Source: Candidatus Saccharimonadota bacterium (GTDB lineage Bacteria > Patescibacteriota > Saccharimonadia > Saccharimonadales > Saccharimonadaceae). Taken from it: a stretch of 46,245 bases of DNA. The stretch is taken from positions 1 through 46,245 of the forward strand of contig JAFUBU010000056.1 in the NCBI GenBank assembly GCA_017460045.1, read 5' to 3'. Shown here piece by piece: positions 19,266 through 46,245 of the stretch (positions are counted from its first letter, which is position 1; each line of letters opens with the position of its first letter). The position numbers and the translations under genes were made by a program. Below the pieces are notes generated by a model that saw only the letters and a list, made by a program, of their open reading frames with translations, had not been told where the DNA came from and made no database searches.

Positions 19266-19333
19266 TATATATATTGTATCACAAGTTGGGGATTTTAGGG
19301 AGCGGCGATGCAACGGACAGACTGACCGAAGTA

Positions 19334-19527
19334 CTGGTAAGTTTGCCTCGTGCGCATTCGCGCACGAGACGTCTTGGTCTGGTTGCAAGCAACCAGACCA
19401 GTCTCGGGCGCTCGGAGAAAGTAGCTACACGCTACTTTCTTGAAAATTCGCCAAAAACAAAAATAGAAGAGCAAGCTCTTCATTTTTTTACTCTGGTAAG
19501 TTTGCCTCGTGCGCATTCGCGCACGAG
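19334..19527. repeat. Two identical 35-bp REP-like hairpin repeats
   Basis: CTGGTAAGTTTGC-CTCGTGCGC-ATTC-GCGCACGAG at 19334-19368 and 19493-19527, with another hairpin TGGTCTGGTTGC-AA-GCAACCAGACCA between them. Confidence 0.85.
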
Positions 19528-25051: not shown

Positions 25052-25098
25052 AAGAATATTATAGCATAGATTGGGAGAAAAGCTTCCTGATGCGGCAG

Positions 25099-25206
25099 GG
25101 GCTAAAGCAACTCAGTTTGCGAGTCTGACAGTAGCAAGAAGCAAATCTAAGGTTCGCGAACGCTACTCGCCGAATGGAGATGCCAAGGGCTAAAGCAACT
25201 CAGTTT
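25099..25206. repeat. 20-bp direct repeat
   Basis: GGGCTAAAGCAACTCAGTTT at 25099-25118 and 25187-25206. Confidence 0.75.
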
Positions 25207-25237
25207 ATGTGTCTGTTTCGCTTACGTCCGATGTCCG

Positions 25238-25427
25238 CCAGAAGAACTGCCGAGAGCTCCTTTTCCGAACGGGAGATTTCTCGCCCTTTGAAATTACAAC
25301 GCTCGGGCGGAGTCTCGCCCAAATTCCGCTTCGCTCCAGTTCGGGACTCAACTCCGCGAGCGTTGGTAATTTCTCGGGGAGAAATCTCTTTATTGTTCTG
25401 AAAAGGACTCCCGGCCAGTTCTTCTGG
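25238..25427. repeat. Long palindromic element, intergenic copy of the family inserted in sbcB
   Basis: The 133-bp core 25266-25398 aligns without gaps to 34815-34947 (15 differences by manual count). Imperfect outer IR CCAGAAGAACTG...CAGTTCTTCTGG. Confidence 0.9.
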
Positions 25428-25820
25428 AGGCCGCCCGGCGGAAGATCATTGTATCAAAAAATGCTCATTTTTTCAATGTTGTAATTTTGACTGTTGTAGA
25501 ATTGTATTTCTTACAAGCGGTTTGAGAGTGTTAGCCATAAGGTTAGTGAAACGGCCTAGCATCTTATGAAAAAGGTAGTGCTGGAGTTTTTCTGTAGGAT
25601 ATGATATTTGCCATAGGGCCTCATGAAAATCAAGGCTTGTTTTTGCTTAATCTGTCTCTTAGAATTAAGAGTGGGTCGGGAGTTGATTAGCTCGTCGGTA
25701 GAGAATGGGTATCGCTCCGCGGGTGGGGCAACAACTGCGAGAATACCGATTCTGGTCATTCTAGTTAAAACTAGGGTTTCCTGTTTTCGTGGGATTTACA
25801 ATGGAGAAAGGAGGACGAAC

Positions 25821-34238: not shown

Positions 34239-35792
34239 CTAATAGTCGACGCTAGCAAGAGACTGGGCCCAGAGGAGAAGCTCCTCGACGAGGCTCGGAT
34301 CGACGTCGGGGCGGTTCGAGAGAGCTTGTAGCTCCTTCTCGAAAGAGACCGACTGCCGATTTAGTCGAGCGAGACGGTATTTTTCCCAATCTTTTTGCTC
34401 TTCTTCGGAGAGAGTATCGGGGAAATTCTTAGCCTTATAGTGGAGGAGGAGCGGTTCGAGGCGGGGATCGGTAAACTCGGGGTGGAGATCGGCGAGCTGG
34501 TTTTTAGTCGCCGCGCGGACGAGACCGCAAAGGTCGCGATCCTGATCGCCCAGGAAGCCGTCGTAGAGGGCGGACTCGGGGTCGGGCGCCTCCGGGAACT
34601 CCGGCTTGGCCTCGTCAATAGCGCGCGCCATTTCGGCGAACTCGGGATGTTTCAAAAGCGCCTTGAGGTTTTTCTCGACCGTATCTTTGTCGAGGCCGAT
34701 CCTCCGCCAGCCATCGTTTTTCTCCAAAACGCCGAGCGGCGCAACCGCCGGACAACGGTTGTAGCGAAGTTCTTTGAGCTTGGGATACAGGTGGAATGTT
34801 GCTGAAGGGTCTTGCGAACGGGAGATTTCTCGCCCTTCAAAATCACAACACTCGGTCGGACCTTCGCCCAAATTCCGCTTCGCTACAGTTCGGGACTCAG
34901 GCCCGCGAGTGTTAGTGATTTCTCGGGGAGAAATCTCTTTATTGTTCGCAAGGCCCTTCAGCCAACATTCCTCCGGGTCATATCTCAAATCCCACACCAA
35001 AATGTTGCCGGTCTTGCTCGGGGCGATAGGAAAAGCGACGGTAGTCTTGTCGAACTCGCTCGAGTAGCGGCCCGAGGCGTAGACAAAGGGCTTTGGCCGG
35101 TCGAGGTTGATGAGGCGCTGGACGAGCTTTTTGTCGCGTAGCTTAAAGAGGTAGTTATAGAGGTCGGGTTGGTGGGTCTTGATGAGCCTCGTAACTTCGA
35201 TGAGCGCGACGACGTCGGCGAGGGCGTCGTGGGCGTGTTCATGCTCGATACCGTTTAGCTTCGTAATCAACTCGAGGCGATTGGTCTTGACCTCGACCAC
35301 GATTTTTTCGCCGTCTTTCTCGATTTCCTTTTCCTGGGTCGGCCAGTTAATCCCCTCCGGCCTCAAGGCCCTTGTCAAACGGACAACGTCGAGCAAGTCC
35401 CAGCGGCTACGGCCGTCCTTCCATTGCCACTCGTAGGGGTCGTAAAAATTGCGCCAGAAGAGATGTCTCATAAATTCATCGTCGAAGCGGACGGAGTTGT
35501 AGCCAAGGGCGCAAGTCCCCGGCGTAAAAATCTCGTCGGTCACATAGCGGCAGAACTCGGCTTCAGAAAGGCCGTCTTGTCTAGTCTGTTGGGGGGTAAT
35601 TTTCGTTACGGCGATAGCGCCAGGAGAAGGCAAAGTATCGTCGGCTAGCTCGACCAGCAGATTAACCGGCTCGCCGAGCGGGTTTAACTCGAGGTCGGTA
35701 CGTTGTCCGGCGAATTGCATAATCCGATCTTCGCGCGGGGAAAGGCCCGAAGTTTCGAGGTCGTAGAAGAAAAAACTATGGGGATCGTTCAT
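34239..35792 (-). CDS. sbcB: Exodeoxyribonuclease I carrying an in-frame palindromic insert
   Basis: DEDDh motifs FYDLETSG, GYNSVRFDDE and HAHDALADV, plus SRWDLLD, LRPEGINWP, YNRCP and LYDGF. Confidence 0.93.
   Translation of the reverse strand: MNDPHSFFFYDLETSGLSPREDRIMQFAGQRTDLELNPLGEPVNLLVELADDTLPSPGAIAVTKITPQQTRQDGLSEAEFCRYVTDEIFTPGTCALGYNSVRFDDEFMRHLFWRNFYDPYEWQWKDGRSRWDLLDVVRLTRALRPEGINWPTQEKEIEKDGEKIVVEVKTNRLELITKLNGIEHEHAHDALADVVALIEVTRLIKTHQPDLYNYLFKLRDKKLVQRLINLDRPKPFVYASGRYSSEFDKTTVAFPIAPSKTGNILVWDLRYDPEECWLKGLANNKEISPREITNTRGPESRTVAKRNLGEGPTECCDFEGREISRSQDPSATFHLYPKLKELRYNRCPAVAPLGVLEKNDGWRRIGLDKDTVEKNLKALLKHPEFAEMARAIDEAKPEFPEAPDPESALYDGFLGDQDRDLCGLVRAATKNQLADLHPEFTDPRLEPLLLHYKAKNFPDTLSEEEQKDWEKYRLARLNRQSVSFEKELQALSNRPDVDPSLVEELLLWAQSLASVDY
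34793..34971. repeat. Palindromic element inside the sbcB coding sequence
   Basis: Imperfect terminal IR 34793-34819/34944-34971; core 34815-34947 is homologous to intergenic 25266-25398; reading frame preserved. Confidence 0.9.
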
Positions 35793-41011: not shown

Positions 41012-42028
41012 ATGGCTAAATCCAAGTCAAAAAAATCCAACGCCAACAAGTCCGAGAAGAAGGACGAGAAGGTGACAGTCGAAGCCGAAAAGGTCAAGAC
41101 TGAGGAGGTTAAAACTGAAGCTTCCGTGCGCGAGGAAAAGGAAGCGAAGCCGACCGAAAAGAAGGCTGAAAAGTGCGCAGAGAAAAAATCATTTAAGGAG
41201 CTAATGAAGGGATTCTTCTCGAAGAAGTATGATACTTCCGAGACTATCCTGACGATTTTCCACCGTCCGCAGATTTACGGTGCGTTGCTCGGCGAGATTA
41301 TCGGTACGATGCTTCTGACGATGACAGTGATCTGTCTCGGGATGACGAACCCGCTATATATTTGGTTCGCGATGGTCGCGATTACCGTAGCGGTCTTTGG
41401 CCTCTCCGGGGCGAATCTTAACCCGCTAATTACCGTCGGGATGATGGCGTCGCGCCGGATGTCCGCGATTCGCGGGGTACTTTATGTACTAGCCCAGATC
41501 GTTGGGGCTTGGCTCGGGATGTTTATCACGACCGGCTTCAAAAACTGGAGCGAAAGTACTACCGAAATGCCGGCGATGGCGGAAGTCGCCGAGGGGACTT
41601 TCTGGCAGCTCGCGATTATCGAGCTCGTTGGGGCGATTATTCTCGCGTTCTTCTTTGCGCGCGCTTGGAAGTATCGCAAGAGCCCGCTCACATTCGGTAT
41701 GATTGTTGGTACCGGTCTCGCCGTGACCATCATCTACGTTTATATCGTTTCCCAAAGCTACTTTGGGCTTTCGAATAACTTCATGATGAACCCGGCGATT
41801 GCCTTAATGTACCAAATTCTACCGTCCGCAGGAGACAACTTCGGCGAGATTATGGGCGGAATTGTCCAAGCTTTGACGATTTACGCGCTCTTCCCGATGG
41901 TCGGCGGCATACTCGGTTTCTACATCGCCGAGTTTACCAGTCGCCTCTCTGGCGAACGCCAGAAATACACGATGCTGTATTTCGCCGGCGATTGCTGTGA
42001 GAAAGATGGCGAGTGCCACAATAACTAA
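41012..42028 (+). CDS. MIP/aquaporin family channel with charged N-terminal extension
   Basis: GEIIGT, SGANLNPL (variant first NPA), IELVG and MNPA; six TM helices; SD GGAGG. Confidence 0.88.
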   Translation: MAKSKSKKSNANKSEKKDEKVTVEAEKVKTEEVKTEASVREEKEAKPTEKKAEKCAEKKSFKELMKGFFSKKYDTSETILTIFHRPQIYGALLGEIIGTMLLTMTVICLGMTNPLYIWFAMVAITVAVFGLSGANLNPLITVGMMASRRMSAIRGVLYVLAQIVGAWLGMFITTGFKNWSESTTEMPAMAEVAEGTFWQLAIIELVGAIILAFFFARAWKYRKSPLTFGMIVGTGLAVTIIYVYIVSQSYFGLSNNFMMNPAIALMYQILPSAGDNFGEIMGGIVQALTIYALFPMVGGILGFYIAEFTSRLSGERQKYTMLYFAGDCCEKDGECHNN

Positions 42029-43518: not shown

Positions 43519-43685
43519 GATGTTATTATATAACAGATAGGAGATTGGCGCAAGCAGGGGCGCCACCTGATTTTACGGTAAAAAGCCAAAACCCCGGCGC
43601 GTTACCCGTTTTTGCCCAAAATGAGCACTTGGCGAAAGTCCTGGTTAATTATTGCTTTTCGGTACCCGAGGCTCCGCCCGGCGGA

Positions 43686-43705
43686 AAGCGCGCTATGGCG
43701 CGCTT
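43686..43705. other. Perfect hairpin over the stop codon, candidate DGR target-recognition stem-loop
   Basis: AAGCGCGC-TATG-GCGCGCTT (8-bp stem, 4-nt loop) directly after the SVRCV-encoding sequence. Confidence 0.55.
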
Positions 43706-46245
43706 ACGCAACGTACAGACCTACCGTAGTACTTATCGCTGTAGCTCGTGCCCAGGCTACTCGAACGGAAGTTCAAGTTGTAGCCGCTAGTGCTGGAGTA
43801 CTGGGTAGAGGCCCAATAGCCGCCGTAGCTACCCACACTGCTCCAGCCAGACGAGAAGAAGTTGCCGCCGTAGACGAAGTTATAGGGAGTACCTCGGATC
43901 TTCGAAGAGCCGGTAGAGTTGTCACCGCCCATAAAGGTCGCGATATTGGCGTATTCGGTCTGAGTAGGTAACCTCCAGCCTTTCGGGCAGACTTTTTGGG
44001 CGGCGCCGTAGGAATAATAGCCGTGGGAACTATTGGTGGCTGTACCGTAAGTATATTGGAGATTAGAGTCGGAGTTAGTGGTAGACCAGCCAGAGCCGCT
44101 ATTGGCAGAGTTTACGTAGGTAATTGTTCCAGCTGCAGCAGAGTCGGAAGTTGTTAGGGTTAGATTGCCGCCCTTAGTAATTGAGCCGCCGGTAACGTAG
44201 CCGAGGGAGAGGTCTTTAGTCATGATGGCGTAGCCGGCCATACCGGTCGGGTAGGAAGTTCCGGCAGTGCCAGTAGAGGGCCAGCGGTAGACAGTATATT
44301 CTTGGTTATCCCTTGAGTCGACGAGCGTTGTGGTAGCGCTTTCGGTAAGATCGCTGGCGGAGACGTCTTGCATATAAGGAGCAGGCTCGGCTACGCAACG
44401 TACAGACCTACCGTAGTACTTATAGTTGTAGCTCGTGCCCAGATAACTTGAACCGAAGGTCAAGTTCCGCCCGTTAGTGCTAGAATACTGCGTAGACGAC
44501 CAGTAGTAGCCGTAGCTACCGACATTGCTCCAGTCGGAGGAGCTGAAGTCGCCGCCGTAGACGAAGTTGTACGGAGAACGTCTAATCTTGGCAGAGCCAG
44601 TAGAGTTACTTCCACCCATAAAAGTAGCAATATTAGAATATTCGGTATTAGTAGGCAATCTCCAGCCTTTCGGGCAGACTACGAGGGCGGCACCGTAGGA
44701 GTAATAACCATGGGAGCTGTTTGTAGCTGTACCGTAAGTATACTGCATATTGGTATAACTATTTGTCGTAGACCAACCAGTCCCGTTATTGGCGGAATTT
44801 ACATAAGTTACGGTTTGTGTTCCAGAAAGGGAGATGGTTTCGTAGGAAGAATTAGAGGCGTTGGTATCGAAGTTGGAAGCGGTAGTAGTTAAGCTAAGAT
44901 TAGAACCTTTAGTAATTGAGCCGCCAGTAACGTAGCCGAGGGAGAGGTCTTTAGTCATGATACAGTAGCCAGCCATAGTGGTTGGGTAAGATTTTGCGGC
45001 AGTACCGGTATCTCTGAAACGGTAGACGGTATAAGTTTGGTTGTCCCTGCTATCTGTTACTGTGCCAGTATGGCCCGAAGTAAGATTGGCGCAGTTAAAG
45101 CTTTGCATCATCCCAAGGTCGCCATCGTCTACAATATCTTCCCAAATCGCGTAGAGGGTAATCGAACCGCCTTGAGTAGTAGTAACGCTAGGATATAGAG
45201 TCGCCGGAGCTACGACGGCCCTCGCTTCGTAAGTCGTCGTACCGCTCGTATCTGTTCCCCAAGCCTTAAAGATTTTACCGGAAGGAGCGGTAAAGTTGTC
45301 GGTACGTAGAGTAACGTTAGAACCGTAAGTGGCGGTAGTAGCGGTAGTTGTACCGCTTCCGCCGTTAGAATTATAGTTGATCGTAAAGGTATTCCCAGAA
45401 CCTTTAGCGGTAAGGGTAATAGCCCCGGCGGGCATGGTAAAGGAATAGGTATAAGTCCCTACGGCGGTATTACCAGTTTGAGAGGGCAAGAGAGTTGTAT
45501 CGCTACTGGTAAATTCAGTACAATGATACCCGGATTTGGGAGTACAAGTAGCGGTAACGCTAGTCCCTTCGGCGACAGTACTACCGGAAGTAATCGTCGC
45601 TCCGGTAGAAGTATTAGTTAAAGCTACGCTGGAGATAGCCGCTGTACTACCGTTCGTAAGAGTTAAGATGTGTCCGGCCGCTTCCCATATGGCATAGAGC
45701 GTAATGGTAGAACCGGAAGTAGTAAGGTTAGTAACGGATTCTTCGTTGTCGTAGTCTACGTCGGCCGCCGTCCCTACTCCATCTACGGCCGTACCGGTAG
45801 CTCCGGTAGCGGAAGTGGACCAGCCAAGGAAGGTATAGCCACTTCTTTCATAAGCATTAGCCGTTAAAGCAGTAGCGGTATTAGTAGTAATAGTCTGGTT
45901 ATTCATAGTACCGGTAATGGTAGAGGTATCCGCAGTATTAGCATCAAAGACTACGGTATAAGTAAGACAAGAGGAGTCCATAAGTACTGTATATAGTACA
46001 TCTCCAGTATAAGTACCGGGAGTAATCCTAGTATCGACTTTAAGGCCATAGTAAATCGATACAGTACTTTCTTCGGAAACAGAAGACTTAGACGTAAGAG
46101 CGGTATTAGTAGCATTAGCATAAGTGGGAAGACCGACATAGGTACTAGTATCTTCAGAGTTTAAGCCCCAAGTATTAGAAGACAAAGCAGTAGCCGTAGA
46201 ACCAATCGCAGTAGAGGAAGTAGAGATAGTATTGTTAGAAGTAAC
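43693..46245 (-). CDS. Large surface protein (5' end outside the window) with InlB B-repeat-like repeats and two FISUMP (Fib_succ_major)-type C-lectin-fold domains
   Basis: The frame is open to the window edge. B-repeat-like motifs YTVVFDAN..GYTFLGWST..TLYAIW and FTINYNSNGGSG..FKAW..TLYAIW; two domains DSRDNQ.Y..MTKDL..GYYSY.AA..VCPKGWRLPT..YW.ST..GRSVRCV. Confidence 0.88.
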   Translation of the reverse strand, partial: VTSNNTISTSSTAIGSTATALSSNTWGLNSEDTSTYVGLPTYANATNTALTSKSSVSEESTVSIYYGLKVDTRITPGTYTGDVLYTVLMDSSCLTYTVVFDANTADTSTITGTMNNQTITTNTATALTANAYERSGYTFLGWSTSATGATGTAVDGVGTAADVDYDNEESVTNLTTSGSTITLYAIWEAAGHILTLTNGSTAAISSVALTNTSTGATITSGSTVAEGTSVTATCTPKSGYHCTEFTSSDTTLLPSQTGNTAVGTYTYSFTMPAGAITLTAKGSGNTFTINYNSNGGSGTTTATTATYGSNVTLRTDNFTAPSGKIFKAWGTDTSGTTTYEARAVVAPATLYPSVTTTQGGSITLYAIWEDIVDDGDLGMMQSFNCANLTSGHTGTVTDSRDNQTYTVYRFRDTGTAAKSYPTTMAGYCIMTKDLSLGYVTGGSITKGSNLSLTTTASNFDTNASNSSYETISLSGTQTVTYVNSANNGTGWSTTNSYTNMQYTYGTATNSSHGYYSYGAALVVCPKGWRLPTNTEYSNIATFMGGSNSTGSAKIRRSPYNFVYGGDFSSSDWSNVGSYGYYWSSTQYSSTNGRNLTFGSSYLGTSYNYKYYGRSVRCVAEPAPYMQDVSASDLTESATTTLVDSRDNQEYTVYRWPSTGTAGTSYPTGMAGYAIMTKDLSLGYVTGGSITKGGNLTLTTSDSAAAGTITYVNSANSGSGWSTTNSDSNLQYTYGTATNSSHGYYSYGAAQKVCPKGWRLPTQTEYANIATFMGGDNSTGSSKIRGTPYNFVYGGNFFSSGWSSVGSYGGYWASTQYSSTSGYNLNFRSSSLGTSYSDKYYGRSVRCVSAP

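Follow-up and report, generated by a model that had tools for sequence, protein, structure and literature searches.

The gene at the far end of the window (the whole 46,245-nt stretch of DNA analysed here) is a real DGR target, and its internal and terminal variable regions (VRs) were likely derived from two different templates, termed beta and alpha, respectively. Judging from sequence comparisons, both VRs were likely written in trans from these templates, the adhesin domains carrying them were likely joined by recombination, and the locus is now likely static or changing at a slow rate; we give this combined reading an even chance. The window corresponds to contig C94 of an 842-kb Saccharibacteria assembly, which is fragmented into 94 contigs, is rated 97% complete and, with 3.67% contamination, could mix strains. 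The gene is organized as follows:

43693..46245, minus strand: target gene, 5' end lost at the contig end, 850 aa present
45193..45618, minus strand: two InlB B-type repeats, likely a stalk (PF18998 at aa 210-281, PF09479 at aa 287-351)
44389..45069, minus strand: FISUMP/CLec domain 1, internal
44392..44568, minus strand: internal VR, template type beta, a type common to C37:9153 and C76:2645
44392..44407, minus strand: IMH-like 16-nt invariant 3' block of the internal VR, with no hairpin after it
43702..44334, minus strand: FISUMP/CLec domain 2, terminal, with a predicted C-type lectin fold (pLDDT 91)
43705..43881, minus strand: terminal VR, template type alpha, a type common to C8:437, C13:2088, C64:3165 and C91:1917
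43705..43720, minus strand: IMH-like 16-nt invariant 3' block of the terminal VR

Thus ordered, the InlB-B/Flg_new repeats precede the two FISUMP (Fib_succ_major) domains. The full-length form of the protein, P0121, has 978 aa, and its N-terminal hydrophobic stretch, which ends in an apparent signal-peptidase motif, looks like a signal peptide. The target gene is followed by metG, with neither an accessory gene nor a template at that spot, and a search of the window agrees with the first-pass annotation that it holds no RT or template. The proposal of a remote target is well founded, since metG rather than cassette parts stands next to the gene, and that of a CPR host is supported as well. Elsewhere in the window, a channel of the MIP/aquaporin family is encoded at 41012-42028 (plus strand); its N-terminal extension is long and rich in lysine.

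The 3' segments of the two domains, 43705-43881 and 44392-44568, had been reported to align without gaps, and they do so in frame on the minus strand, with 29 differences over 177 nt. Thirteen amino-acid changes result, ten of them through codon positions 1-2 only, exactly as described, and nine more codons differ synonymously. The described preference for NNC codons is also real, the third-base C:T ratio being 65:25 in the segments vs 245:303 in the remaining gene (p=1e-6). Two other claims stood in part. The 32-nt IMH-like block is identical between both segments, but only its last 16 nt are invariant in 9/9 paralogous copies, as in an IMH, so that the block shrinks to half of the length first given; the rest spans variable codons which agree by chance between both VRs. 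Likewise, adenine mutagenesis does not account for all of the differences, as 11/29 are fixed differences separating two template types. The GAC/GGC pair at codon 12 may be an ordinary mutation, since the other seven gapless copies have G at this site, as does the sister template introduced below.

Nine copies of the FISUMP domain end are present in the genome, eight of them gapless; the ninth, C13:1404, carries a 6-nt insertion and was excluded from the counts. The eight gapless copies are split by 11 fixed differences, 9 of which fall at third positions, into alpha (n=5, among them the window's terminal VR) and beta (n=3, among them its internal VR), which backs the earlier suggestion of two different templates. 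Variable columns are distributed over codon positions 1/2/3 as 23/22/2 in the alpha VR vs 19/11/38 in the 153 nt upstream (p=2e-9), and as 18/10/3 vs 13/8/22 for beta (p=2e-4). Codon positions 1-2 thus hold 45/47 alpha and 28/31 beta variable columns, whereas the upstream 153 nt vary mainly at position 3. The same holds pair by pair: in all 13 within-type pairs, internal copies included, third-position differences amount to 0-3/59 inside the VR vs 7-26/51 upstream. Four of the five alpha copies show no third-position difference at all, indicating recent writing, perhaps from a live template.

A related genome, G020, contains a non-coding AAC-rich copy of this segment beside an RT (locus L005), that is, a sister template. 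Its adenines stand opposite 40/47 variable vs 13/130 invariant alpha columns and opposite 26/31 variable vs 27/146 invariant beta columns. This template, which had no role in choosing the variable columns, shows about 19 non-A differences per VR; as no alpha or beta template was found, the A-only rule is judged here by the sister template and not by the true one. Variation confined in this way to codon positions 1-2 and to columns opposite template adenines bears out the proposed DGR origin. It also makes it highly improbable that the gene is an ordinary duplicated lectin domain shaped by diversifying selection and gene conversion: the missing cognate template would suit such a history, but third-position change is nearly absent in the segments, 85% of the variable columns lie opposite template adenines, and neighbouring families whose templates are present behave identically. 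A lone intergenic remnant at 19303-19356 of the window (minus strand) resembles the last codons of a FISUMP VR with the IMH-like end and a stop; no domain is found upstream of it.

The terminal domain was modelled with a pLDDT of 91 using a 34-row alignment, vs a pLDDT of 33 for the single-sequence prediction. The model matches Bdellovibrio Bd2740 (Z 9.5), the C-terminal domain of Legionella Lcl (Z 9.3, rmsd 3.2, 108 aligned), TvpA (Z 8.6, rmsd 3.6, 148 aligned) and Mtd (Z 6.4), supporting the C-type lectin fold that had been assigned from the sequence; Foldseek alone returned no match at E<=0.001. The target protein is likely a surface adhesin. Saccharibacteria live as epibionts, and from the fold, the repeats and this mode of life we infer that the protein would bind the surface of a host bacterium.

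Two further elements lie at the 3' end of the gene:

43686..43705, minus strand: hairpin with a perfect 8-bp GC-rich stem and a 4-nt loop CATA, the stop codon inside
43676..43686, minus strand: GC-rich motif, also found at several remote terminal targets, which belong to three template groups, and in a dispersed non-coding repeat

The hairpin is present right after the terminal VR as had been noted, with the correction that the final base of the identical block also belongs to the hairpin. It is identical at 4/5 terminal alpha/beta copies and missing from internal VRs; stems of at least 8 bp occur in 33/4000 random 45-nt windows of the genome. Its presumed role as a homing signal fared less well, as the loop is CATA and not GRNA, and a stem of at least 7 bp follows just 9/51 cassette-linked VRs of related loci (3/51 templates, 81/3000 control draws). 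The consensus site of the BPP-1 type consists of a 7-10 bp GC-rich stem with a GRNA loop, located downstream of the VR (PMC3240598, as far as the text consulted describes it); given its different loop, the site studied here is not classed with this type. According to the consulted part of Wu et al. 2018 (PMC5758913), hairpin-type repeats occur in only 34% of DGRs. As a sigma-70-type terminator the hairpin did not score, unlike a different stem at 43585-43598.

At three remote terminal targets of other templates, a different 6-bp stem surrounds the stop codon and is followed by the same GC motif. The specificity of this motif for DGRs is weakened, since it also begins a dispersed repeat. These repeats are modular, non-coding, 80-200 nt long and found in both orientations; they lie at 25096-25443 and 34812-34947 of the window and on contigs C16, C24, C27, C31, C48, C50, C53, C67, C71, C75, C78, C81 and C91, several copies standing directly 3' of terminal DGR targets. 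They could be REP/MITE-like elements aiding recombination.

A template repeat of 43705-43881 was sought in the 94 contigs of the genome, as the first-pass annotation had proposed, and none was found for alpha or beta, either by an all-against-all A-only scan or by a scan for AAC-rich segments of this fragmented assembly. DNA searches of 41 and 369 related genomes gave a best match of 78%, which is a sister template; sister templates occur in G020 and G307. Pattern scans of metagenome contigs yielded 0 and 2 matches. Among the Logan contigs of run X1, none of the pieces (8/40) and loose ends (6/7) listed at the VR is template-like, which is not evidence of template loss because such contigs prove presence only. 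All 32 variable places listed for these contigs fall at codon positions 1-2; they derive from paralogues and are thus not allelic evidence.

The first-pass annotation had also made its reading hinge on a template or an RT existing in this genome or in relatives. RT-template cassettes do exist in the same genome, in addition to the sister template in G020. Four RT loci were identified: the RT is whole in C84, open but 5'-cut in C73, and broken in C74 and C30. Every one of them adjoins a template, located downstream on the opposite strand and having A-only VR matches. The C74 RT (G000:C74 2358-3735) has suffered an internal deletion and a frameshift, and its adjacent template is intact; at C30 (G000:C30 4055-4507), the 3' end of the RT is fused to the 5' half of a convergent template, and this locus is a dead cassette with three surviving targets. 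A TATAAT box is found 269-298 nt upstream of each of the four templates. Across the species collection, a template/VR pair was recognized in 61 of the best 80 RT loci (of at least 564), with the template downstream and convergent in 51 and on the RT strand in 10. TATAAT occurs 150-600 nt upstream of 38/47 convergent templates with enough flank vs 584/2000 control windows, an excess which suggests that the template has its own promoter.

Cassettes of this lineage run from the target through the accessory gene to the RT, after which the template stands on the opposite strand. The gene preceding the C84 RT matches the bAvd-like profile PF22296 with E 0.0027 and 18.6 bits, below the cut-off of 40. 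The RT profile is matched at E<=1e-30 by 175/301 genomes of the genus, a count in which kin are not independent and whose weaker matches may represent another subfamily. In loci L053-L132, template orientation seems to be linked to lineage, being convergent in most ruminant-gut records; a same-strand template about 260-370 nt downstream was seen in eight loci, mostly from more distant records.

About 24 VRs were counted in the genome. They belong to about six templates, of which four were assembled and two are inferred: alpha 5 (plus 1 diverged), beta 3, C74 8, C84 2, C73 2 and C30 3. Ten of these VRs are internal, and in six genes (on C94, C8, C13, C37, C64 and C76) VRs of at least two templates stand together. 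C21 and C84 are possibly allelic versions of the same locus. By profile search, the domain was hit 38 times on 23 frames, of which three are templates, indicating that further domains without an assignable template exist beside the VRs assigned. The C74 template, used as a positive control, matches eight VRs, 2 terminal and 6 internal. Over 192 nt, the internal ones show 17-28 changes at A and 2-6 elsewhere, the terminal ones 21-22 and 0-2, respectively. Since the RT of this cassette is broken and its eight VRs nevertheless look fresh, cross-use of an RT in trans comes into consideration.

These control VRs bear on the possibility that the VRs of the window are a pure archive, never rewritten at this locus. 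Their diversity would then have arisen in single-domain genes linked to cassettes, and homologous recombination or gene conversion would have brought the copies here. The slight excess of non-A changes in the internal C74-type VRs (2-6 vs 0-2) points in this direction, as do the static internal VRs, the domain swaps and patchwork among paralogues and the occurrence of the same gene in single-domain and multi-domain forms. However, the C74-type VRs differ mutually at 21-33/55 A sites and no two of the eight are alike. Moreover, the homogenised tract of the window gene has the same extent as the segment matching the template, and upstream of it the gene is diverged from all terminal paralogues of the assembly, which favours direct writing over copying. 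We consider copying as the sole source of these VRs unlikely.

Present activity was assessed by comparing homologous proteins. P0121, from a second assembly, is identical to the window in both VRs and shows five differences elsewhere; the combinatorial variation that had been envisaged is thus not seen as an ongoing process at this locus. The comparison speaks only weakly for stasis, since both assemblies possibly sample the same population and the five differences may reflect mixing of paralogues. Nineteen protein clusters were then compared, one being a Fibrobacter control and one lacking a detected VR; independence of their members is not established. Terminal VRs are near-static (0-2 residues) in 9/12 clusters with a covered terminal VR, and two others change along with the whole domain. 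The P0024 cluster provides the sole clean case of hypervariation: 13-19/59 residues of its terminal VR differ in 8/8 other members, compared with 2-5/790 outside and 0 in the internal VR. This VR fits the G020 template, with 23/25 variable residues at template codons containing A, indicating that the template lineage is alive in relatives. As the locus of P0024/P0141 was not found (best match 70-74%), this target may be either cassette-linked or remote. The pair P0042/P0122 was excluded from the allele tally, as its 44/583 differences outside the VR are at paralogue level.

Internal VRs of the homologues are nearly always unchanged, a pattern compatible both with recombinational copying and with infrequent homing. 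Among the exceptions, P0182 and P0184, each holding patches of the other's family, look like products of recombination with paralogues; P0137 and P0138 have a single domain, which stands at the end of the protein and is internal in P0022. P0130 and P0015 share the same internal VR, and their terminal domain is swapped from beta to alpha. Tandem FISUMP domains with letter-identical VRs occur on G020:C1 (L012) and in P0003, and are unchanged across the other members of the cluster; by their sequence they are a recent exact duplication. In P0007, P0012, P0023, P0026, P0039, P0045 and L018, FISUMP domains are combined with Hint/intein-like domains (PF01079, PF07591, PF14890), which apparently stand after an internal VR.

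From these comparisons, most remote copies, including those of the window, look slow or frozen. Could the window gene nevertheless be a fully active double target, the alpha and beta cassettes being merely unassembled and both VRs being rewritten now to give combinatorial variation? Very few non-A changes are found within each type, assembly breaks occur at many target genes and cassettes, the terminal VR of P0024 shows strong allelic variation driven by the sister template, and multi-VR targets diversify in Thiohalocapsa (PMC10907252, in the portion consulted). Against this stand the identity of both VRs in P0121, the clean assembly of the region into a 46-kb contig, the 0-2 residue differences in the terminal VRs of 9/12 clusters, the almost invariably unchanged internal VRs and the failure to find a template in a genome rated 97% complete. 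We therefore regard full activity as doubtful.

Under the preferred reading, in which the VRs were written in trans and the domains joined by recombination, the template RNA would be transcribed from its own promoter toward the RT gene and copied by the RT with errors at A. The resulting cDNA would pair with any domain ending in the matching 16-nt block, and homing would be efficient at terminal domains and rare at internal ones. In the BPP-1 system, deletion of the stem-loop weakens homing but does not abolish it, according to the part of PMC12875486 consulted. Homologous recombination between near-identical VRs and domain bodies would then join domains of different templates in one gene. Finally, cassettes would decay faster than targets, as the deletion and frameshift of the C74 RT and the C30 fusion suggest; the alpha and beta templates may be lost or simply unassembled. 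It is also possible, though tentative, that gut Saccharibacteria hold a two-tier receptor repertoire. Several templates, each with its own convergent transcript and perhaps shared among RTs, would write directly into a pool of lectin domains spread over the genome, hairpin-less internal domains included. Recombination at the shared VR ends would then mix differently templated domains into single adhesins, yielding an antibody-like combinatorial library for choosing host bacteria within 0.84 Mb.

The repertoire is of interest for how Saccharibacteria recognise and switch their host bacteria. About twenty genes of this genome encode lectin-domain proteins, many with DGR-written tips, and they form a natural test set for asking whether homing truly takes place at in-frame, hairpin-less VRs and whether a single RT can act on several templates. 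In such genomes, surveys restricted to cassettes overlook most of the targets. Remote targets, internal VRs, several DGRs per genome and opposite-strand templates have each been published singly (PMC5758913, PMC11661182, PMC6642488, in the parts consulted), and trans targeting, multi-VR genes and domain shuffling have been described together for one genome (PMC10907252, likewise). The literature searched, as far as its texts were accessible, gave no account of DGRs in gut Saccharibacteria, although the supplements of PMC5758913, PMC8144416 and PMC11661182 may list some. Within the same limits, and with the 2017 survey of CPR DGRs outside the scope, it described neither a lineage-wide convergent template nor a single protein served by different templates.

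Several known systems resemble the one described here. By the consulted part of PMC5758913, the closest class is category 'd'/CLec2 (DUF1566, DUF823, Fib_succ_major; Legionella LdtA type), whose VR likewise ends a FISUMP/Lcl_C domain and which shares an AAC-rich template, an IMH-like invariant end, remote targets and possibly an opposite-strand template. In that survey (Wu et al. 2018), no DGR has more than seven non-adjacent targets, CPR mostly have single ones, and one CLec1 gene contains three VRs. This differs from the approximately 24 VRs found here for about six templates, ten of the VRs being internal, in 0.84 Mb and with templates mixed within an ORF. Bordetella phage BPP-1 (mtd; Guo et al. 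2011, PMC3240598, in the part consulted) has a similar 8-bp GC-rich stem with a 4-nt loop after the VR and a CLec fold, whereas here the loop is CATA, the target is remote and the template follows the RT on the opposite strand. The Treponema denticola DGR is also chromosomal, with several remote surface-protein targets, but it has one template, terminal VRs, an FGE-type domain and an HRDC accessory gene (PMC5758913, same part). Thiohalocapsa PB-PSB1 (Dore et al. 2024, PMC10907252) shares, in the text consulted, further traits: several DGR loci per genome, trans-acting templates, unequally diversifying multi-VR targets, domain shuffling, decayed components and MITE-like repeats nearby. That text contained no description of one target served by different templates. 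Its host is a multicellular proteobacterium and its targets are putative antigen sensors, whereas those described here are likely secreted adhesins of a minimal-genome epibiont.
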